64,000 bases of DNA from Flectonema sp. DT1601 (GCA_964019425.1 OZ025791.1:558001-622000); one strand, 5' to 3'. Shown: positions 22,601 through 63,800, numbered from the stretch's first letter. Numbers and translations are program-made. The notes: generated by a model from the sequence alone, not told the origin.

Positions 22601-22872
22601 TATTCAACGTATTGAAGTGATTTATTTCGAGTAGTTTTGTTAGAAGTGTCTGTTGGATCAATTGCGCAGAGTGCGATGCAATTTAAAGTTATGAAGACGA
22701 GAACGATTCTGTCAAACCACTTTCCGCGAAGGATTCGATGGCTTGGTTGCTGTACAAGTGGCTCACCAAAGTAAGAAGCAAATGACGTTCTTCTCAACGA
22801 AGAATGTCGTAACCGCGAGCTAGTCGCTCTTGCAAACCCCGGCAACTGCTCTGTGAGTTCCGATGCTTCCAT
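16690..22872 (-). CDS. Four-domain voltage-gated Ca2+ channel alpha subunit (EEEE filter)
   Basis: Four 6-TM repeats with Arg-rich S4 segments. Pore loops TMEGW/TAEDW/TLEGW/TGEEW. C-terminal IQ motif IQQIWRGH. First ATG is at 22872. Confidence 0.93.
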   Translation of the reverse strand: MEASELTEQLPGFARATSSRLRHSSLRRTSFASYFGEPLVQQPSHRILRGKWFDRIVLVFITLNCIALCAIDPTDTSNKTTRNKSLQYVEYVFTVIFLFEAIARIYMQGFYAKPNSYIRDPWNKLDFVIVLISCCTMTLELLVNNDQVGLTAIRTFRVLRPLKAVTHVKGLQLIITVLLRSLGQLADVLCLYFFFVVVTGIVAVQFWHGKLKYRCRPDLTLNAKITLLDDPSRTCKPGATVSFGYHCPWGYSCVTVDNPNYGQTSFDNLGVSILTMFTLVTMEGWVSVMYNAMDSSHASAAIFFVLVILFGSFFVSNLALVTINTIFFSTREAELEQTVSVIQVQDSSQLGPVTLQKRLSSEGGASPYQHVFGRLREKLRSVVSNKFFDHFITITIVLNTIVMASVHHKQPSEIEKIDHTSNIVFTTIFVAEVLLKLTAFPIKKYIRSRNNLFDLFVSLTSLLDIVILSHQRDGQRSGISVFRAFRLLRVFKLAKQFPNMWLTITAIGKSLQGVMFLTLLLALVLVIYAQLGMHLFGSRFCGLLPSSQYEYSSDDFCENLPRENFDTLGWALLTVFQVITAEDWNTIMYNGMRSRGNPVLFSLYFVSLFILGNYIVLNLFIAVLLNNCDFVCEEKPPDEADTNCLRMLAEMLTVGEEEAPIGVVWDSQPESRFNSLMEFSDERFKIPTIPNVGRADNIKSGCYQQPQPVNTNIPKLPQLADVPVTSTGALNLATLHDNSEDAYVTHEPPRKQMSTVSILRVGGSRSVQSPRSEASQYLDRTVSFSETKFPDRYQVNEFQKTDVVLETEDSTDEESIVDEQFEDNINVEPASPVQPQQKPKNQFCEDDGGLGFNDPISGGGKWLKNRGSLSSRSDDEISPAVSRLSDFSIDATSPRRQKRMSSRSSVSTRSSDAVSPTAKDLRKGSGLSELSLSSESRKRDGSSHSSSASSKSFELPSAMKTQCSSPASKTSSKRANSFGESSITSKSPRKGKRRSSRAGSISSTGESSPRSSRRTSKTLRKSRRKSSRDSIELDTKDKKMKRRTSRSSGASGEPRTSRRGSKSKKSKRKSSRDLNPLQGDNSVPKKSKKSKRRESRESVASELSDLEVKNPLQRCRPAIDHLKMNESKFSDSAGDSATRVKSETQVSENKPTIEKEKSAPFTLLSAEEGEGNHTPLSRNLSSQEERALYHMTSSAEQTDSFVIVPTKAPVARQRTYRALFLCSSTNTVRVFFKNLVEHPYFEVLIILLISLSTVSLAMYNPIAAPDEDIPKALQAIDMFLLCCFTAEALLRTLAYGFVLHPDAYLRRDPWNKLDFLIVVLSAVSTIVNDRQFGLFRMIRTLRPLRFINKSIGMKLVIEALLSGMAPIAHIGLVTGLIFVIFAILGVHIFKGQFYACTHHTWGDLPELQTEEDCLNDGVGTWELFSSNFNHVGAALLVLFEMSTLEGWVQVMHLGMDGTEPGRAPKKNNQPFWAVYFIVFVVFGSFFIVNLFIGVLIEHYYKAKEKEELKNIGIALSPVQKEWVRIQQVALSGSNRAFNERQAVLNWWASKAARRLCVHPYFDRCVYVIIALNVFLIGSEHEGQPETYTRALEEIDKGFVVAYVIELLLRVLSHGKIYFVAGWNRFDFVVVITSVAGHLLRGVNDSFPVVTSVFRVLRLIRITRVVRGAKGVKNLFRTLWLSLADLVNVAGLLSLLYFLYAVIGVNMFGRMAIPGKCISVHANFSSFGYAMLLLFRLSTGEEWQCIMADCRRVSPPYCSEQMGDCPNSWFAVIYFVTFICIVMFVVLNLLIAIILSGYDKVLNESNAPLIVEEVDHFISEFLKREQKEGQWMIQTGKLPVLMQVVGPPLGFSQEHHSEAIQVNKRKAAHVWRRLRETKDSTVHFSDLMLALTWSLSMEDGRIIGEMNELRTDVASPAWSKHLNIISKRWDLLFPNRPVGCGIVAVSFAAIRIQQIWRGHKERKAMLRDTDVPLPYQKFANPINPARADSLRRISSSGVFSSSIRRNRRQASPVAEKQARRKSVVSFVHPKDRKSESRSISQSTSSSTAISDRNPLAATPSS

Positions 22873-23029
22873 TCTACTACACGTCACCTATCCTATCTCA
22901 TTAACAAAAAACCTTTACATGCTCATATAACTTTATATTCTCTGTAGACAAATAAACTGATATTGGTATTTCAAACTCCTCAAACAAAGAAAACAAAACA
23001 GAACAAAGAAATACAAACGAATCCATAAT

Positions 23030-30582: not shown

Positions 30583-31818
30583 TTATAATTGAAAAACAGA
30601 ATTCATCTTAAAAGGCTTCGAGCCGCTTAGTTGAGGATTTTGAGTGAAGTCAAGTTGGTCTAAAACCTCACGTAGTCCGTAGAGTAGTTCGCTGTATTTA
30701 ACTGTCTTTCCTCGTTCTTCTATTGATTTGATTAAAACAATAAAAGCGGTAGTTAGAGCCCCACCTGCTCTACCTTTAACAGCAGATCCGATGAAGGAGT
30801 CGTGTGGACGAAGACGAGCATTGGCTTCTCTTTCGTTTCGGACTGCAAGTGATGATCGTCGTTTTGTTGTGTTTACAGATCTCTTTTTTGGTCCGCTATA
30901 CCAATTAGTAAACCAGTCTTCTCCATCATCCATTGATGCTAAGAAATCGTATTCTTCTTTTTCAGTTGGAGGTCTTTCATTTGCGTTCAATGGTAACAAG
31001 TCTTCTTCTGTGAATGTTATCGGAGGGTTGTCATCAAATGCTGAAGTAATTTCTCGAACATCTGTTGTGTCAGCTGATGTTTCTTCATCAGCACATCCAC
31101 TTAAAAGTAAAACATCAGCATCACAAAGTCTATTTGAATAATCATAATTAGTTAAAGGTTGTAAAGTATCTTCATATTCATCAATGGATTCTGTTTGAGA
31201 CATTTTACGTCTTTCTTGCATAGTTTTCCAGCTGGTTTTTGAAGGGCAGAGACCGAAAGGTAAATCTAAACCAGTACCTGAATGACAACAGTCCATTACA
31301 GCTGTTAGTCGACAACCAGCTGGTAAAGGTTTAATAAGGATCTCAAACATAACGTCATCAACAATCTGTCCTTTGATACGGTGATCAGACGGGAGGATGG
31401 TCTCGTCCAAACCATCAACTTCATCTCCGTCGGTGTCCTTAACTTGACATCCGTGTCCTGCAAAGAAGAAGAACAGACTATCACCAGGCTTTGCTCCATA
31501 AACTAACCATTTCATTCCTACTAAAATATTAACTCGGTTTGCAAAACTACTTGTTCCTTGGTGTTCAGCCTCGTCTGTTAACATTCGAACATCAGAGAAT
31601 CCTTTTCCTTCTAAAAACTCTCTCATTCGCTTAGCATCACTGACACAACCATCTAACTCAGCCTTCCCTTGTCCGTAATAATTAATTCCAATTATCAAAG
31701 CACGTCTTCTAGCATCTTTAGGTACAGAAACTAATACAGTTGGTGAAACCATACTCACTACTTCTCCATTTGGATGAGTTCTACGTGGTGGATCACACAG
31801 GTCGAGGACATTACCCAT
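30583..31818 (-). CDS. Metacaspase (peptidase C14)
   Basis: RALIIGINY, catalytic GHG and DCCHSG, SGCADEETSAD, GGALT, QNPQLS. Confidence 0.93.
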   Translation of the reverse strand: MGNVLDLCDPPRRTHPNGEVVSMVSPTVLVSVPKDARRRALIIGINYYGQGKAELDGCVSDAKRMREFLEGKGFSDVRMLTDEAEHQGTSSFANRVNILVGMKWLVYGAKPGDSLFFFFAGHGCQVKDTDGDEVDGLDETILPSDHRIKGQIVDDVMFEILIKPLPAGCRLTAVMDCCHSGTGLDLPFGLCPSKTSWKTMQERRKMSQTESIDEYEDTLQPLTNYDYSNRLCDADVLLLSGCADEETSADTTDVREITSAFDDNPPITFTEEDLLPLNANERPPTEKEEYDFLASMDDGEDWFTNWYSGPKKRSVNTTKRRSSLAVRNEREANARLRPHDSFIGSAVKGRAGGALTTAFIVLIKSIEERGKTVKYSELLYGLREVLDQLDFTQNPQLSGSKPFKMNSVFQL

Positions 31819-32369
31819 GTGTGTTCTCCTTTTTGGTAATTATCTTTGTTATGTGTAAATAGCTGTGAAGGAGGGTATAAATAATTATTTCTCAGAATGT
31901 ATTCCGATGCGAAGGGGTAAAGCAAGTGCGAGTGTCGTTCCACCGCTTATGTGATGTATGGCAACACTGTTGTGGAAAATACATCTACAAAAAGAATGTA
32001 GCATGTCTTGGATTTTAAAAACATATATTTGCTTGTCAACTTATTTTGCCATTGTGTGGCAATAGTTTACTGTGACAAGAAAGGACTACGTAATGTTCTC
32101 CGGAATTAGAAATTGTATTAAGACGTTGCTCGTTGAAGAACTTCTCCCCACTGCTGGTTCGCGACCAAGGGAACGTTTTTTTTTTTTTTTCGTTTTTTTT
32201 AACTTCTTTATCTTTCGCTTCCTCGTTTCTTTCCTTCTTTCTTTTGTTGCTTTTCTGCCGTTTGTTTCTCGTAATCTTCGAGAGCCGTGCAGACAGGCAT
32301 TATAAACGGACAACACTACACAGCGGAGAATGCCACATGGAGAGATAATACAAGTTGACAGCACACAGT

Positions 32370-48365: not shown

Positions 48366-50878
48366 TTAGAAAGTGTTGTTTACATTTTTTCTGCAACGAG
48401 CAGCTCCCGCAGCAACTTGAGGGTTGCTCTGTCCTCTTGAGATTATAGCATTGTAATCGTCAAGCGCCTTTTGCCATCTTTCAAGTCCTTCGTATGCCAT
48501 TGCTCTTCTGAGAAACGCTTTTACGTTGTTTTCATTTACAGCCAGTGCCTCTCCACAGTCTCCAATTACCTGCTTGTATGATGATGACTGAGCATGGCAT
48601 GTAGCTCTGTTTACAAAGTATGTTGCACGGTCAGGGTCATTCTCGTCGGAAAGCTCAATAGCTCTTGTGTAGTAGGAAATCGCGTCTTCGTATGCTCCGT
48701 TCTTGAAGTGGCTGTTGCCCATCAATTTAGCCTATTGTAGTAGTTAGATTTCTATATTTTTAAACATCACCAGGAAAGACTATCCAGTGGGTAAACCAAT
48801 AATACATACCTCGTTGGCACTCTTGCAGCTTCCAGGGTTGGCCTTGGTGTTTCTATCCTTAATCTTTGAACGTACTTCAGTCAAACTATCACCAATGTCT
48901 CTGTAAGTTTATTAACATCATTTCAAACAATTGGAAAAGTTACTAAATTAATACTTAGAAGGTACATACTGGTTGGTTGGCTCAAACTTCAAGGCCAGTG
49001 AATAATTCTTCTCAGCATCATCGATGCTTCCTTTTGCGAGAAGTGCAACAGCCTTTCTAAAGTAACCCTTAACCCATTCAGGTCTACATCTAATGCATGT
49101 GTCAGCATCAGCAATCTGTTTTAATAATTTCGCCGACAGCGCACTCGGAAAACAATTTCGCTGCTACAGTGGGAAGCTAATTAAACGAGAAGGATATTTC
49201 AGTTCCCTGTGTTGACATCAGTGCGAGAAACAACGAGAGGGTCTTAAGCTCCGTTAAATGCTTCTCGCTAATAAACACGGACCAGGGTTATGATCATCAT
49301 TAATTAGGAAAGGGTGGCATCGAACAGAAGAAGTGATGTCTCTCAAGGGACAAAACAATAAGATCTCGCCAAGCATCCGTGGCATGCAACTCACAGTAAT
49401 TAGGGCTGCCACCCGGTGTTGCCGGCTGTAAGAAAGATTAATAATAAAACTCTCCCACCCCACAGCACACGGAAACGGTTCTGCTGCGACGACAGCGTAG
49501 GACGGTGGGAATAATATTGGAACACGTACAAGGGTACAGCTCCAGGTTGTGGAAGGAAGAAGATCTCGCCAAGCATCCGTGGCATGCAACTCACAGTAAT
49601 TAGGGCTGCCACCCGGTGTTGCCGGCTGTAATAAGGATTAATAACAAAACTCTCCCGCCCCGTTTCACCCCACAGCACACGGAAAACGATTTCTGCTGCG
49701 ACGACAGCGTAGGACGGTGTGGAAGCTAATTACACGAGAAGGGTATGTTTCAGTTCCCTGTGTTGACATCAGTGCGAGGAACAACGAGAGGGTCTTAAGC
49801 TCCGTTAAATGCTTCTCGCTAATAAACACGGACCAGGGTTATGATCATCATTAATCAGGAAAGGTTGGCATCGAACAGAAGAAGTGATGTCTCTCAAGGG
49901 ACAAAACAATAAGATCTCGCCAAGCATCCGTGGCATGCAACTCACAGTAATTAGGGCTGCCACCCGGTGTTGCCGGCTGTAATAAGGATTATTAACAAAA
50001 CTCTCCCGCCCCGTTTCACCCCACAGCACACGGAAAACGATTCTGCTGCGACGACAGCGTAAGACGGTGTGGAAGCTAATTACACGAGAAGGGTATGTTT
50101 CAGTTCCCTGTGTTGACATCAGTGCGAGGAACAACGAGAGGGTCTTAAGCTCCGTTAAATGCTTCTCGCTAATAAACACGGACCAGGGTTATGATCATCA
50201 TTAATCAGGAAAGGTTGGCATCGAACAGAAGAAGTGATGTCTCTCAAGGGACAAAACAATAAGATCTCGCCAAGCATCCGTGGCAGGCAACTCACAGTAA
50301 TTAGGGCTGCCACCCGGTGTTGCCGGCTGTAAGAAAGATTAATAACAAAACTCTCCCGCCCCGTTTCACCCCACAGCACACGGAAAACGATTCTGCTGCG
50401 ACGACAGCGTAGGACGGTGTGAATAATATTGGAACACGCGCAAGTGTACAGCTCCAGGTTGTGGAGGGAAGAAGATCTCGCCAAGCATCCGTGGCATGCA
50501 ACTCACAGTAATTAGGGCTGCCACCCGGTGTTGCCGGCTGTAATAAGGATCAATAACAAAACTCTCCCGCCCCGTTTCACCCCACAGCACACGGAAAACG
50601 GTTCTGCTGCGACGACAGCGTAGGACGGTGGGAAGTTAATTGAACAAGAAAGTCAACAGCCTGCTGGAAGCTAATAATGTTTTAAAACAAAAATAAACAC
50701 ATACCGCGTCATCGTAATTTTTCAACTGAATATGACAAGCTGCCTTGTTTGAACTAATAGTTCCAATGTTTTCACTATTTGGCTCACAGAGCTCTATGGC
50801 TTTAGTGTATTGTTCAATAGCTTCCTTAAATTGCTTTTTCTTAAAGAAGTCATTTCCCTTGGCTCTGAGGTCATCCAT
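48366..50878 (-). CDS. Two-TPR-domain (STI1/Hop-like) co-chaperone (4 exons: 50878-50705, 49115-48970, 48900-48810, 48731-48366)
   Basis: TPR clamp motifs KGNDFFK..YTKAI, WVKGYFRKA, GNSHFK..YTRAI, KAFLRRA. The frame is preserved across introns 50704-49116 (1589 nt), 48969-48901 and 48809-48732. Confidence 0.88.
49195..49304 (-). ncRNA. C/D box snoRNA, U18/snR18-like (copy 1)
   Basis: Box C ATGATGA (49300-49294), guide TGGTCCGTGTTT antisense to conserved LSU AAACACGGACCA, internal GCGAGAAGCA/TGTTTCTCGC stem, C'-like CTGATGT, box D CTGA (49202-49199). Confidence 0.85.
49361..49428 (-). ncRNA. Candidate single-hairpin AGA-box RNA H1 (other array-1 copies start at 49561, 49912, 50262, 50473)
   Basis: About 68 nt: lower stem GCCGG/CTTGGC, internal loop, upper stem GTGGCA/TGCCAC, then G-AGA-NNN. 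Confidence 0.6.
49648..49719 (-). ncRNA. Candidate single-hairpin AGA-box RNA H2 (other array-1 copies start at 49999, 50349, 50560; a deleted copy at 49448)
   Basis: About 71 nt: lower stem CCGTCC/GGGCGG, internal loop, upper stem TCGCAGCA/TGCTGTGG, then G-AGA-NNN. Confidence 0.62.
49746..49855 (-). ncRNA. C/D box snoRNA, U18-like (copy 2)
   Basis: Same boxes and guide; C 49851-49845, D 49753-49750. Confidence 0.8.
50096..50205 (-). ncRNA. C/D box snoRNA, U18-like (copy 3)
   Basis: Same boxes and guide; C 50201-50195, D 50103-50100. Confidence 0.8.
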
Positions 50879-52018
50879 TGTGAGTGTTTTACTACTGAAG
50901 AAATAGCAATTTATTAGAGTCCGATAATTGCATTGAAATGGTCGCTTCTAAGACACATAAAAGCGATGTTTTTTTCAAGTATTCAGACCTGGAAGAAATG
51001 GGGTGAAACAAAAAAACAAAAAAATAAATAAATAAAGAAATATGTTTAAACTCAACACAAGAAAACGAAAGGATAAGAAAACATGTATATAAAACCTTAG
51101 AGTTAATAATAAGCAGTTATTGTTCTTTTTTTTTTTGTTATTTTGTCATTTTTTTTTTTCCCTCTCAGAAAGATTTTTCTTTTCCCTTCTTTTTTTTCCA
51201 TTTTCAGTACGAAGTTATCAAACAAACAATGTAACCAAATTCAACTTTACGGTTCATTCTCATTTTGTTTTTTTGTTAGTGGAAAGGTTTCATACTTCGA
51301 GAAAAGAAAAAAAGAAAAAAAAAAAAAAATCGTAACAGAGATTATCGAAGGAAACTAGGAAAGTCTACTCGTCCTTTCTTTCACGTGATAGAAATGAAAT
51401 CACATGCGTGCCTCCGTTAAGATAATGTGCAGTTCATCATTGTTTGAGCAAACGCAGAACTTGCTAACAATAAAAAAAAAAAAAAAATAATAAAAAACAC
51501 GCAAAAAAAAAAAACAGCTACTATGCACAGCGGTTAGAAAAAATAAAATAAGAAAAATCAAGTGTGAAGTTAGAAGGTACAATTAAGAAACAGAGCACAA
51601 AGCCGCATCTGCAAGACAGAAAGAAAACTTCCGCGGAAAGAACAAAAAAAGAAAAAAACTTTCCCCTGCCACACGGTTCGATGTTTCTTAGTCCATCACT
51701 TGTTCACGATAAAACAGTAGCGAAATAGAAAAAATGGTACATTGAGGACACCGAATGCCCTTCAAAAAGAAAAGTACTTATGAGTTTTAATTATGAACAT
51801 AAACGTTTTGGGAACACAACAATGCCCGATAATGAGAAAAAAAAATGGAACGCAGCCATCCGTGAGTGAATATCACTTGCATTGACACATATGAGTAAAA
51901 AGATCAACACAGCAGTCAACCTAATAATTGGTAACAGGGTGTAACAACCTGACCAATTAAAAAAAATTAGCACGATAGCAGAAGTTAGATGAGTATACCG
52001 TTAACATTGTGAGGGATG

Positions 52019-55006
52019 CTAACCAGTACCGAATTTACGTTGCCACAAAATGACACATTGAAGTGAAACTGCGAATCCAACGAGGGTACACCAAAATAGT
52101 GATGATATTAAATTAGCCTGACCCTGCGCTATCGACGTCACTACAGACAACTGCTGTGCCGGATCTGAAATACCTGAAAACTTATCTAAAGCAGCAATCA
52201 CAGCATCACACGAAGACGAATCAGATTTTACAACAGAAGATATGTGTGTTGATAATTCTGTGATACTTGTTATAGCAGTTACCGAGGCACTTGATAAAGA
52301 CCACAATAAGTACCAACAATAAAGTAAAATAACAAAAAACACAATCGGTAAAGACTCCACCACAACATCAATATGAGAACTACTTGTAGGTGACTGTTCA
52401 ACTACTGGTTCTGGGATACTAATTTCTTCAGTTTCTTCTACTGATGAGGAAGAGTTCCCCAGACGAGAGCAATACTGTTTTGCCAAGGCACAGAAAACTT
52501 TGTACGCCGCGTTCAGTTCAGTAGTAGCCGTACTATCGACAGCTGATTTCATCATGAAACTCTTTAAAAAGTTAATGTGTGCAATCACATCAACATCACA
52601 CTGTGACGTCGACTTGTTCTCAGTTACAGAAAGCACAACTTCTATTCTAAAATTTTCACCATACATTACCTCAGGAGTTTGTGAACAGAAATGAATATAC
52701 AACTGAGACTGAGTCATGGCATAGCGCTGGTATTCAACGTATTTTGTATGTTTGCTCCAGGGTGCTTGGATAACCGTCAGGCAATCAAACTTTCTACTTC
52801 CACAGCCTGGTCCAAAAGAATCCCAATTAGGGATGGATACTGGTTGTGGGTTTTCTTTGGTACCTCCGTATTCCCCTCTCTTCTTATGATACTCAACTAA
52901 GAACGATGGTTCAGAAAATAGAGCTGAAAAAACCGAATTGAGACTTCCAGGAACGGAAACAGATAAAAGTTTTTTTCCCTTCGAAAGAACTGTAGATGCG
53001 GGTAAGAATTTATCATTTATAGTGCACTCTGAGAATAGTTGATGCATGTCGTCAAGGTCAGTCTCAGTGAATGAAACTTCCTTAGCTGCAATTGGTTCTT
53101 TCAGTGATTGTCTTTGCAATTGTTTTTGTTGTTTTTTTGCTTCACGTTCCTCATGTTCGTTGCGAACATCAGCTACTGTTTTCCCTTGTAATGATAGCTT
53201 TACATTCCAAAGCTTAGAAATTAAAGAAAAAGCTGCATCTCTTTGAATAAATGCCGTAAACGTATAAACATCACTAACCGTCGTTATGACTATCGCATTG
53301 AGGAACATTAAATCTTTTTTTTTTGTAATTTCTAAGATTTCCATCATATCAAGTTGGATAGACTGCTGCAATAACGGACTCACAAAGAAAACATGAGAGT
53401 CTGTTAGGGACATTCTGCCCAGACGATCAATCTTATTTTTTGCCTTATAAGAACATTGATAACTCTCAACGAGAGTGGCATTTTCAGGACAGTCTGCAAA
53501 TTCTCGTCGAAGATCACTCATTTTATCAACTTGACTACTTCTCACAGGTGTATTCGGTGCTGGTATTGGAGAACAGGCGTTTATCGGAGACCGAGCAGGA
53601 ACTGGTGAGTCGGTTGGCCGTTCTCTTGGTGGAGTTTGTTTTTTACTAGATGAACGAGGTGTTTCCGGTTTTGAAATAATATTTTCATCCAACTGAGTTA
53701 TTTTTTTCGATTCTTGCTTTGATAAGATATCAGCAGCAGCAATCGCTGCTGCTGACTTCGTAACTGGAGGTCGACCGAATTCGGGATCACTTGGAGAACC
53801 AATTTTATCATCACTTATTACACTGATACTGTTATTCATACTCTGAGGGAGTGATTCAGTTCCGACTGAACTGTGATCTGCTTCTTCTTCTGATAAAATT
53901 CCATTATCGAGGGATGTTTTCTTTATTGTTATCAGTTGATTTAGCAGTTGTAATATCTCAGCAGAATCTCCTAAAAAAGCTGTAAACTTGTGTTGCTCTT
54001 CATCTCCACTCGCTGTTACATATTTTATTATAATACACTCCATCAATAATACCTTCTTCTTTGTAGCAGAGCGAAAAGAACTAAAGTCCAGTACAACAGG
54101 GTCACACATGATACTATAAAAACAAAGTTTGTTATGAGTGATATAGAGCCTTCCATGGTGGGGAAATCGTTTTACATATGAACATTGGTAATCATTAATT
54201 AATCGTTCGCAAGGATGAAGACCAAATAATTTGTGGATGCCTTTGTCTTCGATGTTTTCTTCTTGCGCGAATGTGACGGTAGTTACTGGAGTTAAGGGAT
54301 CGTAGGATGAGAAGTCTTTGTCGTTTATTTTAAGAATACGTCTTCCAACATAACAAGAGCCTCCTGACATCTCTGCTATTGAGTTCTGCTCAACTTCATG
54401 AAGTAGTGTTGGGTCTGATTCTAAGAAAGTAAGACCTGTTTTACTTAGCGGTTGTGGATCAGAAATCGTAAGCATACCAGTCACTCCGATTATCTCCTCA
54501 TCAGAGTAAGTGTATCGACGATTCCATCGTCGACGGCGAACACAGTCAGTAGCAGATTTCTTTTTAGGATGAAAATTCATCCACCAGTCACCTGCATATT
54601 CCCAACCTTCTTCACCTGTAGCATCCGCCTCAGCTTCCCAATCGCTTATCCAAACACAGCCTTCTGGTAAGGATATTTGATCTCTTGTTTGTGGTTTTCT
54701 ATTTTTCCAATCGCCGACCCATTCAGTGATATCTGTCGGCAGTCTCTTAGCATTCCATCCCATCAGTGGAAACCATCTTTGAGTTTCGTAGACATATCTC
54801 GTTTCAATTATTTTCGCTGATTTCTTTGATTCTTTTAAAGCTTCTGTCATCTTATCAATATCTTCTTTACTGGACATCAGATTGTTGAGATCGTCTTCAG
54901 ATAAAGACGCCATTTGTGAAGCATTATGAAAACCTTTCTGTTCGAGTAGTTCTGTGTAGGCTTCCAGTCCATTTGTTGCCAACAACTCCTGCAGTTGAGA
55001 ATCCAT
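52019..55006 (-). CDS. SAM-DysF-(PDZ-like)-GRAM-GRAM-VASt membrane protein (Aster/LAM-like lipid transfer)
   Basis: SAM-like N-terminus; DysF YETQRW..GWEYA..VRRRRW; two GRAM domains (YQCSY..GR); VASt (TPEVMYGENF); C-terminal TM helices. Confidence 0.82.
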   Translation of the reverse strand: MDSQLQELLATNGLEAYTELLEQKGFHNASQMASLSEDDLNNLMSSKEDIDKMTEALKESKKSAKIIETRYVYETQRWFPLMGWNAKRLPTDITEWVGDWKNRKPQTRDQISLPEGCVWISDWEAEADATGEEGWEYAGDWWMNFHPKKKSATDCVRRRRWNRRYTYSDEEIIGVTGMLTISDPQPLSKTGLTFLESDPTLLHEVEQNSIAEMSGGSCYVGRRILKINDKDFSSYDPLTPVTTVTFAQEENIEDKGIHKLFGLHPCERLINDYQCSYVKRFPHHGRLYITHNKLCFYSIMCDPVVLDFSSFRSATKKKVLLMECIIIKYVTASGDEEQHKFTAFLGDSAEILQLLNQLITIKKTSLDNGILSEEEADHSSVGTESLPQSMNNSISVISDDKIGSPSDPEFGRPPVTKSAAAIAAADILSKQESKKITQLDENIISKPETPRSSSKKQTPPRERPTDSPVPARSPINACSPIPAPNTPVRSSQVDKMSDLRREFADCPENATLVESYQCSYKAKNKIDRLGRMSLTDSHVFFVSPLLQQSIQLDMMEILEITKKKDLMFLNAIVITTVSDVYTFTAFIQRDAAFSLISKLWNVKLSLQGKTVADVRNEHEEREAKKQQKQLQRQSLKEPIAAKEVSFTETDLDDMHQLFSECTINDKFLPASTVLSKGKKLLSVSVPGSLNSVFSALFSEPSFLVEYHKKRGEYGGTKENPQPVSIPNWDSFGPGCGSRKFDCLTVIQAPWSKHTKYVEYQRYAMTQSQLYIHFCSQTPEVMYGENFRIEVVLSVTENKSTSQCDVDVIAHINFLKSFMMKSAVDSTATTELNAAYKVFCALAKQYCSRLGNSSSSVEETEEISIPEPVVEQSPTSSSHIDVVVESLPIVFFVILLYCWYLLWSLSSASVTAITSITELSTHISSVVKSDSSSCDAVIAALDKFSGISDPAQQLSVVTSIAQGQANLISSLFWCTLVGFAVSLQCVILWQRKFGTG

Positions 55007-55976
55007 TCAGTGTATAGAACTTCTGTTTGGAAGGAAAGTTTTGTTTTAATTACAGAAGCCCTTTAGTGAAGGTCTTTAGTCTTATTTGAGAAAATAAAAC
55101 CAAAGTCATAAATAACTGAACAACCCATTTTTTTTTTTTTTTTGGGAAACGGAGAGTGGCTTTCCAGGTTAAGGATTCTGCCACAAGACGCTTGATCAGA
55201 AATAATGGTCGCTGACAACAGACAAATGTTGAGAGGTAAGATGTGCAAAAAAAAAAAAAAAAGAAGTAAGGGAGAGAGAGAGAGAGAGAGAGAGAAAAGA
55301 AATTTAACGATCTCAACAAGAATACCGAAGAACAGTTGGCAAGAAAAAGGGGATGCGTATTTTATCTAACATGGGAAAAACGAAATAACAGAAAAGACAA
55401 CTATTAAATATGTCACACATCAGAGATCCAATAATCCAACTTAACAATAAGAGAATCAATTGGTACTTCTGATACTAAACTAAACAAGAGGGAGGGTTAG
55501 AAAGTAACTGTTGACGGGGTACGATTAAAAACTGCTTTCTGGATATCTTTGTCACAGTGGACAAAGTACCAGAACAATCTCGATACCTACGGTGATAGGT
55601 CAGTTAAGTATACGACAAGAAAGCTACAAACAGAAAGAAGAAAAAGAAAAGGGAAGAAAGAAGCAAGATCCGGGTGGTTTTCATCCCGTTAGAGCGATTT
55701 GAATTATGAGAGCGGGGAGAGAAAGTGTGTATGTATGTGTATGTATCTTGTTTTAGTTAGTCTTTTTTATAAGAGCACGTAAACTATAATAGAAAGACGC
55801 ACAACACAGTCGTATTTAAGACAACATAAGAATATGAATGGCGATTGATATCTTAAATCTATTCTTATCTTGACTTTTAACGATAAATAATAAGAAGAAA
55901 AACAGATTTATAAGTGAAAAGACCGAACAGCGATTAATACAAATGAAAAAAAACAAAAAAAAGATATATTTCAATG

Positions 55977-56864
55977 TTACCTAACAGCCATGACTATTGA
56001 GGTTATTAAAAGAATAGTTGCGCTAATTACTTTTCTGGTATCTTCATCAACACCACTGAGAATGTTGGGTCCAATGCAGGCACCAGAACAGGTCCCAACA
56101 AAGAGTGAAGGTACAAGTGGACGACAGACGTTTCCGAGTGACCAATGAGTCGCAAGTGAAGTAGCGGAAGTTGGAATCATTGACAGTAGACTAGTTGAAG
56201 TTATCACCTGCCATGGAGCAACCTCAGCCATACTCATAAAAGGAACAACAACAGAACCTCCAGCAATACCCAACAAACCAGATGCTGTACCAGCAACAGC
56301 AGCAAGTACAATGTGAAAAGCTATAAACCCACTCTGCGTCTGAGTGAATATCTGCAATTTACTCTTCTCTCCATTTTGACTTCCCTTAACAAACACTCTG
56401 TAGTATACTACACAACTTGATGTTAGTAAGAATACGGCAAATAGTTTTTTCAAAACTGTTTGACTGATATGTTGACTGTACTGAGCTGCTAAGTAACCAA
56501 ACCCTGGAGCTATACCTCCAAGGATCATAATAGGAAGAACTGAAACAGTACACTGTGCATTCATGTATGTTGAGAAACCACCAACAAAAAGAGTAGAAAG
56601 GGCACAGACAAGAGAAGTACCAACACACTGTTTGTGAGTGAGACCTAGTGTTGCAGCCAGTAGTGGTACACAGAATGGTCCACCTCCTAGTCCTGCCATG
56701 GATCCCAATAAGCCTGTAGCAAATCCAACACTACCTCCTCCTACAACTTCACGGAATCTATCATTCTGGATAAACTGCGCTCTCTGTGGAATTGAAACTT
56801 GGGCGCTGTGGTTTCGAACTGCGCGAAACCAACGAACAGGTGGACGTCTTGGAGAGAGACACAT
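55977..56864 (-). CDS. TauE/SafE sulfite-exporter family membrane protein
   Basis: Duplicated GxxGxGGG..VP motifs and GTSL/STSL; Arg-rich, mitochondrial-type presequence. Confidence 0.85.
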   Translation of the reverse strand: MCLSPRRPPVRWFRAVRNHSAQVSIPQRAQFIQNDRFREVVGGGSVGFATGLLGSMAGLGGGPFCVPLLAATLGLTHKQCVGTSLVCALSTLFVGGFSTYMNAQCTVSVLPIMILGGIAPGFGYLAAQYSQHISQTVLKKLFAVFLLTSSCVVYYRVFVKGSQNGEKSKLQIFTQTQSGFIAFHIVLAAVAGTASGLLGIAGGSVVVPFMSMAEVAPWQVITSTSLLSMIPTSATSLATHWSLGNVCRPLVPSLFVGTCSGACIGPNILSGVDEDTRKVISATILLITSIVMAVR

Positions 56865-57444
56865 GTTCGTTTTGTGTAATCTGAAAGAATGTTAATAAAT
56901 ATCACAATACGGAAACAGGCAAGCTGACAAACTTTATAACTTGAAACGAACCACAAAACAGAAAAACATAACAATAAATGAGGTCTAAGAACGTGACTGA
57001 GGTTATTGATTACAATTCAAAGTGAGTAGACTGACGCTCTCTATTCCATTTTTAAGTTTATTGACTCTTTCCAAAAAACCATTTTGAATAAGAATCAGCC
57101 AGCCGTCGTATTTATCACAAGAAAAATAAATAAATAAATCAAATCAAATCAATAAATCGTAAGGACATTAAATAAATAATGGTTCATCGGGCTAAAAAAC
57201 TTAAACTAAGTAGAGATATCAGACCTGTCTTATATTACGGTTAGTAGGTTAGTATTGACTAGTTAGCGGGTCAAACAAGCCTCCGGCCAGTTTAGTGGAA
57301 GCTCATTCACAGTAACTATTAAAATATAACAGAAAAAAGGAACATAACTGAAAGGATAAAAGGCAGGTTTGAAATCCGCTGAAATTTGGATTTTTTTTTT
57401 TAAAAAAAACCCAAATTAAAAACAGTAAAGTGAAAACAGAAAAT

Positions 57445-59532
57445 CTATTGAGTCGTGTCAATAATTTCTAAATCGACATCTGTTGCTGTTCTCTCCCCAG
57501 TTGATACTTCTCCCCAAGCAACTCGAGCAGCGGATGGATGAGAGCCGCTGGTTGATGTTCTGGCACCGATATCCTCTCTGTCAGTTTTATAGAATTCAGC
57601 GTCTTGATCAACAGTCGAATATCTCTTACTGCGTTCAGTGTCTTCGAGTGCAATACGAAGCTTCTCAGCTTCCAACTGTCGAGAAATAATATCAGCAAGT
57701 GATTGCGGAGCAAAGTGTTGGGAAACATCAGAATCACTATCTTTAAAATAAAGAAATATCAACGACTTACTAAATGTTGATATGGTCCCGATAAGTAAAG
57801 AAGCAATAAAGAAACTACCGACCCACATCGCAATCAGCGGAAACACAGCATACCTAATCTTAGTATCTGTCTTAACAGGAAAGTTAAATTCTCGTAACAG
57901 AACCCAACAAGAGAGTGTTGAAACACTTGGTATGAAGAACCTCACAAGTGAATAGCATGTTTCGGTTGCGAATATTATTGGACCCAGAAGTGCTTTGTGT
58001 GAATAAGATAGCCTTTTAGCCATACAACCTGCTTCAAAGTAACTAACACCACTAACAGCAATAATTACGTAATTAGCGCTATCGATTGGAAGCATTTTTG
58101 ATCCCTTACAACTACTAATCAAATCGTTGAACCATCCAAATAATGTTGAGCAGGCTGATCCTAGTAAGAGGGAACCCAGATGACTGATAAAGGCTCCTCC
58201 TCCTTTGGTTTTTATTCTTTTTGTATCAGAACTTAGAATATCCTCACTGTAGTACCAACTAGAAACCTGAACAGACATTGCCAAACAAGTACTACACCAT
58301 ACGAAGTTTATCACCCAAAGAGCACCCATAAAATTATAAAGCTGCCATAGCTGACTTGTATAACTAAATTCACTGGTAGTGATATTATAAAGCCCTGGGG
58401 TATACGTTGGAATTACACCATTACTATAAACAGGATCAGTAGAGGAATTCATAACCGCTGTGTGTGTTAATATTACTTTATCTCCATGAGACCCAATCAA
58501 CAACATCATAAAAGCAGCAATACCAATCACCAACAGAATTGTTATGCAAGAGCATAGTGAAGTAGTAGCAGGAATCAGTGAAGATGTGAAACACTTTGCT
58601 GATACCTCAGCAACTTCAGTGACAGTAGCGGTTGCTGCTTTACGTAGGACTATCACCATTAAGAATAAATAGGCTACTAGACCTCCAACACAAACGAATC
58701 CGAACACCATTACTATTGTACGCACAGCACTTGATATTGGAGTGAGGTCATCATCAGCATCATCGTAGTAAACGTAAGAACGATAAGCAGAGCCAGCTAA
58801 TACTAATAAGTTTCCAGTTATCGCAATAGTGAAAGTAACGAAAGCATTGACTTGAAAACCAATTGAAAATAAAACTGACAACAAAAAAGAACAACCAACA
58901 GCAGCAGCAACGGTATATCGAGCTGCTGAAATTTCAGTCAGACCAGTGAGAACGATACCACCGAAGAATTGTTCGGTTTCAATAGTTTCGGATTCTAAGT
59001 TAGTGATGGCAACGTTAACACCTGTTGGAGTACATCTGTAGAGAACATCTGATGAGCTGTAGTCAGATATGAAGCAATCACCTGATTGTGATAATATCTC
59101 ACCAAGTGTTTGATTATCACCACATCGATATTCCAATACTCCACCAACTCTTAAATTAATACAACCTCCTGTTGGGATAGCTCTGAGTTCTTCAGATGTT
59201 AATCCCGAAAACTCTTTTCTGCAGACTGTACTTCCAATAGCTGGACAGGTTGAGACACACATCTTTAGCAGTACTTGAGTCTTGTCAGGGATGTAAACGA
59301 TATCACTAGATGGGTGTTTGCTCCCTCCACATGTATCGCCGTTGTAGTCCTTTGGGAGAAGAAGATCGCCTGCATTGCTAGACCAGACTTCCCACACAAT
59401 AAATCCCCAGCCACCCAAAAATAGTAAAAATATTATTACCAATCCAACATCAGTACACTTTCTTCTCTGAACGATATGATGTTGTTGTTCGTCGGGGGCG
59501 TCATCTGCGGTCTCGTGGCGTGACGAGATCAT
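57445..59532 (-). CDS. Choline transporter-like (CTL/SLC44) protein
   Basis: RKCTD, PKDYNGDTCG, CVSTCP, multiple TM helices, NYVIIAVSGVSYFEA. The ATG directly follows a CAG at 59533-59535; the exact start is uncertain. Confidence 0.85.
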   Translation of the reverse strand: MISSRHETADDAPDEQQHHIVQRRKCTDVGLVIIFLLFLGGWGFIVWEVWSSNAGDLLLPKDYNGDTCGGSKHPSSDIVYIPDKTQVLLKMCVSTCPAIGSTVCRKEFSGLTSEELRAIPTGGCINLRVGGVLEYRCGDNQTLGEILSQSGDCFISDYSSSDVLYRCTPTGVNVAITNLESETIETEQFFGGIVLTGLTEISAARYTVAAAVGCSFLLSVLFSIGFQVNAFVTFTIAITGNLLVLAGSAYRSYVYYDDADDDLTPISSAVRTIVMVFGFVCVGGLVAYLFLMVIVLRKAATATVTEVAEVSAKCFTSSLIPATTSLCSCITILLVIGIAAFMMLLIGSHGDKVILTHTAVMNSSTDPVYSNGVIPTYTPGLYNITTSEFSYTSQLWQLYNFMGALWVINFVWCSTCLAMSVQVSSWYYSEDILSSDTKRIKTKGGGAFISHLGSLLLGSACSTLFGWFNDLISSCKGSKMLPIDSANYVIIAVSGVSYFEAGCMAKRLSYSHKALLGPIIFATETCYSLVRFFIPSVSTLSCWVLLREFNFPVKTDTKIRYAVFPLIAMWVGSFFIASLLIGTISTFSKSLIFLYFKDSDSDVSQHFAPQSLADIISRQLEAEKLRIALEDTERSKRYSTVDQDAEFYKTDREDIGARTSTSGSHPSAARVAWGEVSTGERTATDVDLEIIDTTQ

Positions 59533-60012
59533 CTGAATTATTGAAAAAAAGAAAAGATTATTGAGCTTTTTCAAAAAAAAAGAAGAAAAAAAAAACAGCC
59601 ACGTCACTTATATCAGCCTGGATCTTGTGTCCCTGTCATAATCTGAAAAAAGAAAATATAATCATTAGGGATGAAAACCAAAATAGTAGTTAAATACTTA
59701 AATGGTTACTGGTTGCTAATCGGTCCTTATCACTGAAGGAGCAATTTGAGGGAAAGGGTTCTCATTGTTATTATTATTATTATTTTTCTTTCTCCTCTCT
59801 CGTCGTTTTTTTTTTATTTATATTTTTTTTTTTCCTTCCTTAAGAGAAGAATTCACTACTCTCCACAGTCACTAAGTCATGTCACCCGTCTATTATATTT
59901 CTGTTCTTGTTTTACGCGAATAGAAGTTTTGCTCGGCAGTGCCAATTATTTCTAAAGGGGTAAAGCTGTGCAGTCAATGGTACATACGAGAACATTGTTC
60001 TTGTTGTACATT

Positions 60013-60047
<35 letters not shown>

Positions 60048-60832
60048 GACATAAATAAATAAAAACACTCTCAGTCCAGAATGTTTACTTTTTAATTTCT
60101 TTCTCCTTTTCATTTTGTTGGTTAAAACTATGAATAAAGAAAGCACTGCAAGCCATTATTGTTCTAGTCAACGTTGGGTACCAAAGAAGACTAAACAGAA
60201 GGGCGGACAGATGGCAGGGAACCAGTTCCACTCTGCAGATCGTTACACCGAATCTATTCATAGCTTTACCCTTACAGACTGTATTGCTATGTTAAGGTTT
60301 TTTTTTTCTTTTCTTTAATGTTTCAGTAATGCGAAACAGTAGTCGTTTTTTTTTTTTTTTTTTTTTTTTGCCACGATTCACGATAAAGAATTCTTCAATT
60401 AATCTCAGCACCGGGTGGCGGCTTAAAAGGTACCAGAGAGAGAGTTAGGAGACGGGAGAGAGATACGAGGGGACAGTGCTAAATAATCAGTTTTGATTAT
60501 GAAACAGACCTGAGTACACGTGCATAACTCATGCGGACAACAGTCATAAATGTGTGCTTTCCGGGGCATAATAAAATGCACCCCAGAGCTCCTTTATCAT
60601 GTTTTCAACGGCAACCAATATATAAATAAGTTTAGACTTAGTTTAATACAAGGGTTGCAGTCGTGGATCTAAAAACACACATTTACAGTCACCCAACCAA
60701 CAGAAGCAAATAAAAGAAATCTTTAACTGCGAGAAACAATTGCAAGAAGTAATATTCCTTTTTATGTCGAATAGACCCTGTCAGTAGCTGCAATGATTGT
60801 ATAAATCTTTGAGTCGCGAAAAAAAATAAACT

Positions 60833-63800
60833 CTAGTAAAATTCTGAGGTGAGGGATGGATCTGGCTTTCCAATAGCAAACACATCAAAACCAACCTCAC
60901 GAAGGGTGCTAGCGTCTAGAATCGCTCTCCCATCGAATAAAAACGCTGGTTTTTTCATCTTTGCGTAGATGTCCTGAAAGTCAAGAGTCTGTTTGAGTTG
61001 TATTACACAGTCAAAGAGATAATAATAAAAACAGATAAGATTAGATAATCGCATACCTTAAACTCATCCCACTCTGTTAACACAGCAATAGAGTGCGCAT
61101 TATTACAAGCATCGACAGCTGAGCTTTCAACCTTCACGAGTTGCTCAACTCTAGCTCTGACTGAAGGATCTTCAATAAACGCTGTGAGGTCAGCAATGAT
61201 CTGCTCTCTTGGAACCTGTTTTTAATAATTTTATTCAACTACACTTGTTTCATGAATCTAATAACCCTCACTGGTAAAATACGATTACTCTGCATAGGAC
61301 GCTCAGAGACACTTGCCATCTCTTTGGGGATGCCGCAAGGATCATTGACGACGGTCCCGATAACACATGCAGTTGTATTGTTAGGTCTGCTGTCAAGGGT
61401 AAATCGAAACTTAGTAGCAGAGAAAGCGCCGAAGCAACGAGGGTGCTAGAAAGTCGGACAGAGGCAACCTTTTCTGGAGTGGGTCAAAAGTTTGAATCAG
61501 TTGCCAGGCACAGGATAAACACGGCTGAAGAGATGGGGTCGAGTCGATAAGAACGACCGTTGAAGATTTCACGATGAGACAGCAGCTACAGCAACAACAA
61601 ACCGAGACGGTAATGCAGTCTTTAATGGCGGACTCGTTTCACTAAAAACACGGGTAGCAAGGCAAGAGACACAACCTCAGCAACAAGAAGCAGTGAAGAT
61701 GCCGATGTCACCGCCACTATCAAACAAAAAAAGAAATGAGGTAAAACAGATATTTCAGTTCCCTGTGTTGACATCAGTGCGAGAAACAACGAGAGGGTCT
61801 TAAGCTCCGTTAAATGCTTCTCGCTAATAAACACGGACCAGGGTTATGATCATCATTAATCAGGAAAGGTTGGCATCGAACAGAAGAAGTGATGTCTCTC
61901 AAGGGACAAAACAATAAGATCTCGCCAAGCATCCGTGGCATGCAACTCACAGTAATTAGGGCTGCCACCCGGTGTTGCCGGCTGTAAGAAAAATTAATAA
62001 CAAAACTCTCCCGCCCCGTTTCACCCTACAGCACACGGAAAACGATTCTACTGCGACGACAGCGTAGGACGGTGTGGAAGCTAATTACACGAGAAGGGTA
62101 TGTTTCAGTTCCCTGTGTTGACATCAGTGCGAGGAACAACGAGAGGGTCTTAAGCTCCGTTAAATGCTTCTCGCTAATAAACACGGACCAGGGTTATGAT
62201 CATCATTAATCAGGAAAGGTTGGCATCGAACAGAAGAAGTGATGTCTCTCAAGGGACAAAACAATAAGATCTCGCCAAGCATCCGTGGCATGCAACTCAC
62301 AGTAATTAGGGCTGCCACCCGGTGTTGCCGGCTGTAATAAGGATTAATAACAAAACTCTCCCGCCCCGTTTCACCCCACAGCACACGGAAAACGGTTTCT
62401 GCTGCGACGACAGCGTAGGACGGTGTGAATAATATTGGAACACGCACAAGTGTGCAGCTCTATGTTGTAGAAGGAAGAAGATCTCGCCAAGCATCCGTGG
62501 CATGCAACTCACAGTAATTAGGGCTGCCACCCGGTGTTGCCGGCTGTAAGAAAGATTAATAACAAAACTCTCCCGCCCCGTTTCACCCCACAGCACACGG
62601 AAAACGGTTTCTGCTGCGACGACAGCGTAGGACGGTGTGAATAATATTGGAACACGCACAAGTGTACAGCTCTATGTTGTAGAAGGAAGAAGATCTCGCC
62701 AAGCATCCGTGGCAGGCAACTCACAGTAATTAGGGCTGCCACCCGGTGTTGCCGGCTGCAATAAGGATTATTAACAAACTCTCCCGCCCCGTTTCACCCC
62801 ACAGCACACGGGAAACGATTCTACTGCGACGACAGCGTAGGACGGTGTGGAAGCTAATTACACGAGAAGGGTATGTTTCAGTTCCCTGTGTTGACATCAG
62901 TGCGAGGAACAACGAGAGGGTCTTAAGCTCCGTTAAATGCTTCTCGCTAATAAACACGGACCAGGGTTATGATCATCATTAATCAGGAAAGGTTGGCATC
63001 GAACAGAAGAAGTGATGTCTCTCAAGGGACAAAACAATAAGATCTCGCCAAGCATCCGTGGCATGCAACTCACAGTAATTAGGGCTGCCACCCGGTGTTG
63101 CCGGCTGTAATAAGGATTAATAACAAAACTCTCCCGCCCCGTTTCACCCCACAGCACACGGAAAACGGTTTCTGCTGCGACGACAGCGTAGGACGGTGTG
63201 AATAATATTGGAACACGCACAAGTGTACAGCTCTATGTTGTAGAAGGAAGAAGATCTCGCCAAGCATCCGTGGCATGCAACTCACAGTAATTAGGGCTGC
63301 CACCCGGTGTTGCCGGCTGCAATAAGGATTATTAACAAACTCTCCCGCCCCGTTTCACCCCACAGCACACGGAAAACGGTTCTGCTGCGACGACAGCGTA
63401 GGACGGTGGGAATAATATTGACTGCTAGCTAAAAATTAGCAAACTCATGTGATACATACCTTAGGATCGTAAATGTGAACAAATGCTCCCTCTTCAATTA
63501 AAGTAGCGCAGATACTAATAGCACAAGTTTCACGAGTATCACCTGTATCCTTTTTGAAAGCAAATCCCAGAATAGCAATCTTCTTGCCGGATACGGTGTC
63601 GAACATAGTTTGGATCATTTTTTGTGCGAATCTCCTCTTCTGGTACTCGTTGATGTCGATAACGGACTTCCAGTACTGAGCGACCTCTTCAAGACCAAGA
63701 CACTCAGATAGGTAAACAAGGTTTAAGATATCTTTTTGGAAACATGATCCACCAAAACCAACAGAGGCTTGCAAGAACTTTGGTCCAATACGAGTGTCTT

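Follow-up and report, generated by a model that had tools for sequence, protein, structure and literature searches.

Tandem arrays of predicted single-hairpin AGA and box C/D guide RNA genes in two introns of the diplonemid Flectonema sp. DT1601

Intronic clusters of small nucleolar RNA (snoRNA) genes occur in Drosophila and rice, and the H/ACA guides of plant and algal intronic clusters are generally of the two-hairpin type. Intronic snoRNA clusters were reportedly treated by Chen et al. in 2008, and polycistronic snoRNA clusters of Euglena gracilis are said to have been described by Moore and Russell in 2012. The present report concerns two long introns in a window of 64,000 nucleotides (nt) of Flectonema sp. 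DT1601 (GCA_964019425.1 OZ025791.1:558001-622000), which is the whole stretch of DNA analysed and from the start of which positions are counted. One intron interrupts the gene of a TPR protein of 258 amino acids (aa), the other the gene of UDP-glucose 6-dehydrogenase (UGDH), and both hold tandem arrays of three predicted guide RNA genes, named modules A, B and C.

Papers given by PMC number are cited for particular sections or tables. Trypanosomatids possess repeated clusters in which C/D and single-hairpin AGA (H/ACA-like) RNAs are interspersed (PMC3273796, PMC2613932). A guide of the AGA type consists of one hairpin of 57-91 nt and lacks an H box; its stem I of 5-8 base pairs (bp) follows an A or a C, the AGA box lies 1-3 nt further on, and the pocket pairs with 3-9 nt both before and after a U located 13-16 nt from the AGA (PMC2613932). 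Single-hairpin guides were also reported for Euglena (PMC2613932). In plants, Chlamydomonas and Ostreococcus, several snoRNAs are found in one host intron and are released from a polycistronic precursor (PMC7671301, PMC11028025). Finally, retrotransposition or duplication at the DNA level carries snoRNA genes from introns of one expressed gene into those of unrelated ones (PMC3511168).

The arrays of Flectonema resemble the trypanosomatid clusters in the mixture of C/D and AGA guides, the short spacers, the head-to-tail repetition, the single AGA hairpin and the distance of 13-16 nt to the target U. They are unlike them in their setting, since the trypanosomatid clusters, as presented in the cited sections, form their own trans-spliced and polyadenylated polycistrons in nearly intron-free genomes, whereas the present ones lie inside cis-spliced introns of protein genes. 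Clustered guides in multiple isoforms are shared with E. gracilis, of a sister euglenozoan lineage, the clusters of which are, unlike those studied here, not described as intronic in the sections cited. Plant and algal intronic clusters likewise combine several snoRNAs in one host intron, whereas here single-hairpin AGA RNAs are involved, 13-15 near-identical modules occur per intron, and the same cluster sits in two unrelated hosts. The intragenomic mobility of snoRNAs (constrained drift) concerns single snoRNAs in the cited part of that work, in contrast to the block of several genes and several units considered here. The locus had been presented in a first-pass annotation as a hybrid system; because plants and algae are known to carry several snoRNAs in one intron (PMC7671301, PMC11028025), an arrangement both intronic and polycistronic is not a new system. 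Each ingredient is known (repeated mixed clusters, intronic clusters, snoRNA movement), and the combination was not found in the literature searched.

It appears probable that these two diplonemid introns hold tandem arrays of three predicted snoRNA genes directed at the ribosomal RNA (rRNA) of the large subunit (LSU), which would be expressed with their hosts, released from the introns and copied once. This reading is built on sequence features, namely the introns, the arrays, the boxes, the complementarity to rRNA and the locus-specific variants. The features are collected in Table 1.

Table 1. Position, strand and description of the introns, arrays, modules and associated features in the window
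Feature	Position	Strand	Description
TPR intron 1	49116..50704	minus	1,589 nt, GT-AG; gene of the 258-aa TPR protein
TPR gene exons	50878-50705, 49115-48970, 48900-48810, 48731-stop near 48366	minus	frame restored on splicing
UGDH intron	61216..63459	minus	2,244 nt, GT-AG; UDP-glucose 6-dehydrogenase gene
TPR array	49218..50632	minus	13 modules, order ABABCABCABABC
TPR A modules	50560-50632, 50349-50421, 49999-50071, 49648-49721, 49448-49509	minus	last copy defective, 11-nt deletion
TPR B modules	50473-50540, 50262-50329, 49912-49979, 49561-49628, 49361-49428	minus	
TPR C modules	50119-50201, 49769-49851, 49218-49300	minus	
UGDH array block	61749..63420	minus	15 modules, order ABABCABABABCABC
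UGDH A modules	63338-63410, 63127-63200, 62777-62849, 62566-62639, 62354-62427, 62004-62076	minus	last copy with a stem II change
UGDH B modules	63252-63319, 63040-63107, 62691-62758, 62479-62546, 62267-62334, 61917-61984	minus	
UGDH C modules	62897-62979, 62124-62206, 61774-61856	minus	
Module A, representative	63338..63410	minus	one ~70-nt hairpin with a basal stem of 7 bp and an AGA box; predicted to guide pseudouridylation of LSU U1287 (L107)
Module B, representative	49912..49979	minus	68-nt single hairpin, AGA box; predicted pseudouridine guide, LSU U933 (L107)
Module C, representative	49769..49851	minus	predicted box C/D RNA spanning 83 nt between its boxes; degenerate D' preceded by a 12-nt guide; internal hairpin before box D
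Decayed module A relic	49128..49171	minus	ends ~12 nt from the 3' splice site of the TPR intron
Frameshifted open reading frame fragment	61309..61716	plus	81-93% aa identity in pieces; antisense to the UGDH host, adjoins the array

Removal of the long introns gives full reading frames, that of the TPR protein and that of the C-terminal 284 aa of UGDH. Spliced UGDH matches the transcript-derived protein P0121 of Flectonema neradi at 91.5% over 284 aa with 0 gaps, and spliced TPR matches F. neradi P0128 at 80.3% over 259 aa with a single 1-aa gap overall. The long-intron junctions are gap-free in both protein alignments, and P0128-P0130 run unbroken across the TPR junction. Both long introns are considered real because the frames are restored and the orthologue junctions are gap-free, and with their GT-AG ends they stand where the first-pass annotation had placed them. 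The UGDH protein falls into one 90% cluster with a F. neradi transcriptome protein, the next named relatives being Namystynia, Diplonema, Rhynchopus and Lacrimia. All other coding-region introns had been given as 64-81 nt long, with just two long ones; short introns were indeed found, at 61-79 nt in a set of 14 picked by hand, which checks that statement in part. P0014, a contig-called UGDH protein of a R. humris cluster, leaves the alignment at the same residue and continues as an intron-like tail. As it runs off at the same UGDH codon, the position of the UGDH intron is likely shared with Rhynchopus and older than the array. The last ~15 bases of the two long introns are nearly identical (49116-49131 and 61216-61231, minus strand), a resemblance that may reflect chance or an acceptor consensus, as comparable A/T-rich strings are present at other places in the window.

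All of the modules (28/28) are in the sense of their host gene. An intronic cluster is recognised by at least two host-sense snoRNA genes per intron, and here 13 and 15 modules are present. The unit shows tandem periods of 212 and 350 bp. Blocks of the two arrays, which lie 11 kb apart, are 94-98% identical, the best reaching 97.2% over 892 nt, and no match of the unit better than E 0.22 was obtained in the window outside both introns. Near-identical host-sense arrays in both introns, as initially noticed, were thereby verified. The introns had also been said to be largely filled by them; the modules are confirmed, and a final stretch of ~550 nt in the UGDH intron turned out not to be array. 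Two sequencing runs, from one sample and study, each yielded one contig of 207 nt over 49229-49435 (depth 2.3), the 2 differences of which correspond to majority alleles; these runs are perhaps not independent of the window and were not used as evidence.

As the window contains no diplonemid rRNA, complementarity was assessed with rRNA loci that a published probe for Diplonemea (PMC7970053) picked out of metagenome contigs. Out of the 68 loci selected, which owe their taxonomic assignment to the probe alone, 5 reach the LSU and 2 hold whole operons. For comparison, 34 unassigned eukaryote ribosomal DNAs (rDNAs) covering the B site were taken out of 48 loci. Target numbering follows the LSU of locus L107.

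A guide that fits a lineage-specific uridine hardly arises by chance, and the pairing of module B is the strongest evidence presented here. Stem I counts 5 bp including two G-U pairs, with an A before it and the AGA after a 1-nt gap, which is within the trypanosomatid and Euglena criteria. The pocket forms 6+8 bp around the U, 14 nt from the AGA and below a 4-bp upper stem, in 5/5 diplonemid LSU sequences, a geometry that agrees with the trypanosomatid consensus in the cited sections of PMC2613932. All of its pairs (14/14) are present in the five diplonemid sequences versus 8-11 out of 14 in the 34 other eukaryote rDNAs, and the target base itself is U in 5/5 of the former and A in 34/34 of the latter. 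The pocket score, computed from a hand-set stem, was reached by 0/150 shuffled rRNAs on each of two operons. Both A (70-74 nt) and B (68 nt) have one hairpin in the range of 57-91 nt and no H box. From its boxes and pairing, module B is strongly supported as a predicted single-hairpin AGA pseudouridine guide. The base adjoining its target is presumably the position of yeast pseudouridine 776. The latter site is listed in a table of PMC5699541. An early target of B (AUCCG-UA site) was dropped for a better pocket with diplonemid rRNA.

Module A has a stem I of 7 bp, preceded by an A and followed by the AGA after a 1-nt gap, which is also within the trypanosomatid and Euglena criteria. Its pocket forms 6+6 bp at 16 nt from the AGA in 3/5 diplonemid LSU sequences. 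The score on L107 is 11.5, a value reached by 5/150 shuffles, whereas the 65 AGA-hairpin candidates located outside the introns attain at most 10.5. Among 26 AGA-hairpin candidates, the energy per base is lowest for A, its 11 copies ranking first. These features moderately support module A as a probable guide, the target of which is less certain. An early target near the 3' end of the LSU was dropped, here also for a better pocket with diplonemid rRNA.

Module C carries terminal boxes C and D with a terminal stem of 3-4 bp in the Rfam alignment, as expected of a box C/D RNA, in which a guide of 10-21 nt precedes D or D'. Its 12-nt guide aligns base for base to the SNORD18 consensus in the same register and is complementary to 5/5 diplonemid LSU sequences; the fifth paired base is LSU A719 (L107), the U18 site, for which 2'-O-methylation is predicted. 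A 12-mer complementary to the rRNA common to two operons is present in 6/6 C copies of the arrays versus 0/11 other C...D box pairs in the window. Yeast U18 guides 25S Am649 and Cm650, and it also has non-canonical C'/D' boxes (PMC5699541). Module C is like SNORD18/U18 in its box C, in its box D and in a 12-nt guide that is the same and keeps its register relative to the D' position that follows; it is unlike it in being ~20 nt longer, in the internal hairpin before box D, in the score below the cut-off and in a D' that reads AUUA. It is thus a predicted U18-like box C/D RNA, not filed as a SNORD18 member. The Rfam check proposed at first, for SNORD18, was borne out for guide and register and failed on the family score. 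An RNA of ~110 nt had been expected; with 83 nt between the ends of its C and D boxes, the module corresponds to a mature form of ~90 nt. Taken as euglenozoan-type guides, one C/D and two single-hairpin AGA RNAs, the modules are backed by their pairing to diplonemid rRNA, as first suspected. A target of the D-box side in the small subunit rRNA (10-nt match in L034) was rejected, the sequence being present in 0/68 probe-selected loci. A 23-nt segment near the UGDH 3' splice site (61246-61268) shows 74% complementarity to the box C region at the 5' end of each UGDH C module, probably by chance.

The rRNA searches gave some further results. Two of the 68 probe matches, L104 and L106, are not diplonemid-like rDNA as judged from upstream sequence and tree position, and L106 has no Rfam rRNA match. 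A eukaryotic LSU rDNA motif occurs in an estimated 510 or so stretches of genome records from bacteria and archaea; among the 48 fetched (L014-L061), the 6 that were checked are eukaryotic rDNA, i.e. contamination. A scan of viral contigs for rRNA motifs gave 0/13 loci that are rRNA. Nothing conserved was found when the A and B targets were sought in 10 unassigned eukaryote rDNA loci, and a 17-mer of module B was present in 0/129 fetched loci. Weak Rfam matches to snoZ155/SNORD78 (48864-48928) extend across the boundary of a short intron with an exon and were put down to chance.

A number of observations weigh against the presence of LSU-directed snoRNA genes in these introns. Rfam gave 0 matches at the gathering threshold over the window, and the folding energies are ordinary (z-scores of +0.38 for A, -1.21 for B and -0.18 to -0.54 for C); the case is made by the boxes and the target complementarity. 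The rRNAs belong to relatives and not to this organism, and no orthologous cluster from another diplonemid was obtained, hence no covariation test. The pocket of A has one bulged base at its top, before an 8-bp stem, where a perfect stem II immediately above the pocket would be expected, and fails in 2/5 diplonemid LSU sequences, its score on L082 being reached by 147/150 shuffles. An antisense candidate within the TPR intron scored 12.0, above A, so that the score of A is within reach of chance. For C, a 12-nt rRNA complement anywhere was obtained in 1,196/20,000 shuffles and in 57/723 window tiles (6-8%), and the match to SNORD18 (RF00093) amounts to 23.9-25.3 bits for a cut-off of 41 (E 0.07-0.17). 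Moreover, the D' box of C is not canonical and its C' box could not be recognised; the D-box side folds as a hairpin, and no good target was found for it in diplonemid rRNA. Neither host is a ribosome-biogenesis gene.

The most sceptical explanation, by which the unit is a satellite or a non-autonomous transposon that looks like snoRNA genes by chance, draws on the tandem periods, on the Rfam and folding results just given and on the transposon-like debris adjoining one array. It does not account for a lineage-matched 14/14 pocket of B on a diplonemid-specific U or for C and D boxes accompanied by a U18 guide, and the unit shows neither a terminal inverted repeat nor a clean target-site duplication. 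Judged on these sequence matches, the explanation appears extremely improbable, and the pocket match of B largely refutes it.

Copy variation is informative on the state of the probable guide genes that we favour. Two of the 11 A copies look defective (49448-49509, with the 11-nt deletion, and 62004-62076, with a stem-breaking change). One variable column was found in B (11 copies) and one in C (6 copies), and A varies more. Variable columns are fewer in modules (10/224) than in spacers (18/179; Fisher p = 0.03) when deletion-inflated columns are removed by hand; without this removal, modules count 24/224 and do not differ from spacers (p = 0.87). As the difference appears only after hand removal, the lower variation of modules is weak evidence of selection. 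True snoRNA genes could also persist here as silent or poorly processed passengers, duplicated from a functional cluster at another genomic site. The defective A copies and a decayed relic would fit such a situation, as would the transposon-like debris in the UGDH intron, long introns of D. papillatum often containing transposable elements according to the cited part of PMC10161547; the search for copies was confined to the window. Against passengers speak the near invariance of B and C, the uniform host sense of the modules, and hosts that look intact and have expressed orthologues. This alternative is regarded as unlikely.

The arrays of probable guide genes also carry traces of their history. 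The last 100 nt of the TPR intron, where the decayed A relic lies, align with spacer plus A at a score of 99 versus a maximum of 33 in 300 shuffles, the adjoining spacer contributing part of it; the relics at the 5' end of this intron are borderline, their score of 32 equalling the maximum of the shuffles. The edges of the UGDH block (63420 and 61749) are sharp and match the last unit of the TPR array best. Because the edges are decayed in the TPR intron versus sharp in UGDH, the TPR intron is likely the donor and the older host. B-to-A spacers display 4 fixed differences between TPR (2 copies) and UGDH (3 copies), and an A-to-B spacer variant occurs in 2 copies of the UGDH array only. The different module order and these locus-specific spacer variants argue for two real loci with later homogenisation. 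A second array produced by an assembly error duplicating one locus would explain 97% identity over 892 nt at a distance of 11 kb, and neither array junction is spanned by reads or by a second assembly; it would not produce a different module order, fixed spacer differences, a variant private to UGDH, or unique flanks that are continuous with correct splice sites. Such an error is considered very unlikely. In the simplest reading, the array likely grew in the TPR intron by unequal crossing-over, and a block of several units was likely copied once at the DNA level into the pre-existing UGDH intron, the direction being suggested by the edges; each array would have been reshuffled and partly homogenised since.

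The copying of one cluster between two unrelated hosts ~11 kb apart, stated in the first-pass annotation, is well founded on near-identical blocks with locus-specific variants. The mobile snoRNA cassette proposed along with it is not upheld, as one duplication does not make a mobile element; such a cassette would be marked by numerous copies dispersed over unrelated introns, and two loci were seen in the window. No terminal inverted repeat above 5 nt and no exact or clean target-site duplication were found at the edges of the UGDH block, and with an intron position that likely predates the array, the features of a DNA transposon or an introner are missing. The final stretch of the UGDH intron, ~550 nt without array, consists mostly of a decayed fragment of a multicopy open reading frame. 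Its family, P0136/P0137, is defined by an open reading frame of 448 aa in a 13-member cluster, with a proline- and glutamine-rich middle. No Pfam family was assigned to the tail of the UGDH intron (3 frames) or to P0136/P0137 (best E 0.15), and Atlas matches (0.77-0.78) were uninformative. The intact multicopy family gives the impression of an unannotated, possibly gag-like, transposon reading frame. The fragment is likely transposon debris that is older than the array copy and was not its vehicle; carriage of the cluster by a transposon was set aside as unlikely, the fragment having decayed much further than the arrays and having no counterpart in the TPR intron.

For guide genes hosted in this way, a path of maturation can be proposed. 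The arrays would be transcribed with the host gene and spliced out in the intron, which would then be debranched as in established snoRNA biology. Endonucleolytic cuts in the A/U-rich spacers would separate the units, and the RNAs would be trimmed to ends protected by Cbf5 or fibrillarin particles, the 3' ends of A and B being expected 3 nt beyond the AGA. Internal cuts would be needed because end trimming alone would leave one long snoRNA-ended RNA, such as the product of two snoRNAs in one intron when trimming proceeds from the ends only (PMC11028025). The nuclease cutting the snoRNA precursors of trypanosomes was described as unknown in the cited section of a 2011 paper (PMC3273796). In the end, A and B would direct pseudouridylation and C 2'-O-methylation, all on LSU rRNA.

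The RNAs might also be made by a route that does not involve the lariat. Either an internal promoter would drive them, or spliced-leader trans-splicing and polyadenylation would open the unspliced pre-mRNA, so that snoRNA output would compete with host mRNA. Trypanosome pre-snoRNAs are trans-spliced and polyadenylated (PMC3273796), and the UGDH-specific B-to-A spacer was flagged as acceptor-like in an intron scan. However, the UGDH array begins 40 nt from the 5' splice site, which leaves little room for a promoter, and the acceptor-like variant is absent from the TPR spacers. This route is regarded as quite unlikely. The variant (63233-63251, 62672-62690 and 62460-62478, minus strand) resembles the 3' splice site of this genome in its pyrimidine run, A/C-rich tract and AG, and by its sequence could be a cryptic or trans-splicing acceptor.

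The wider surroundings of the arrays agree with a diplonemid polycistronic unit, as the real-looking long protein reading frames are all on the minus strand over 134-63999 of the window. They include, as labelled by eye, a 2,065-aa voltage-gated channel-like protein (16690-22887) and a metacaspase-like protein (30583-31839).

No description of diplonemid guide snoRNAs was found in the literature; the word snoRNA appears in the main text of neither the D. papillatum genome paper nor a 2025 diplonemid intron paper, and no snoRNA was found in the genome-paper supplementary files examined. Likewise, no report of a euglenozoan-type AGA and C/D cluster inside cis-spliced introns was found in the literature, a prior report on Euglena being possible. 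A much broader proposal is that in diplonemids, and perhaps in euglenids, whole snoRNA polycistrons move as cassettes among host introns genome-wide, their release following a euglenozoan route that couples cis-splicing to internal cleavage or to spliced-leader trans-splicing at spacer acceptors. This is doubtful; if true, snoRNAs hosted by introns and the repeated, intron-free clusters of trypanosomes would be joined by the intermediate that has been missing.

If the arrays of predicted guides are confirmed, single-hairpin AGA guides would extend to a third euglenozoan lineage, a diplonemid-specific pseudouridine would be predicted in the LSU, and a trypanosome-type repeated cluster would be able to live inside cis-spliced introns. 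An intronic precursor of 13-15 units with copy-specific variants would offer a compact substrate for the nuclease question, and the two arrays would capture a recent move of a whole cluster between hosts.

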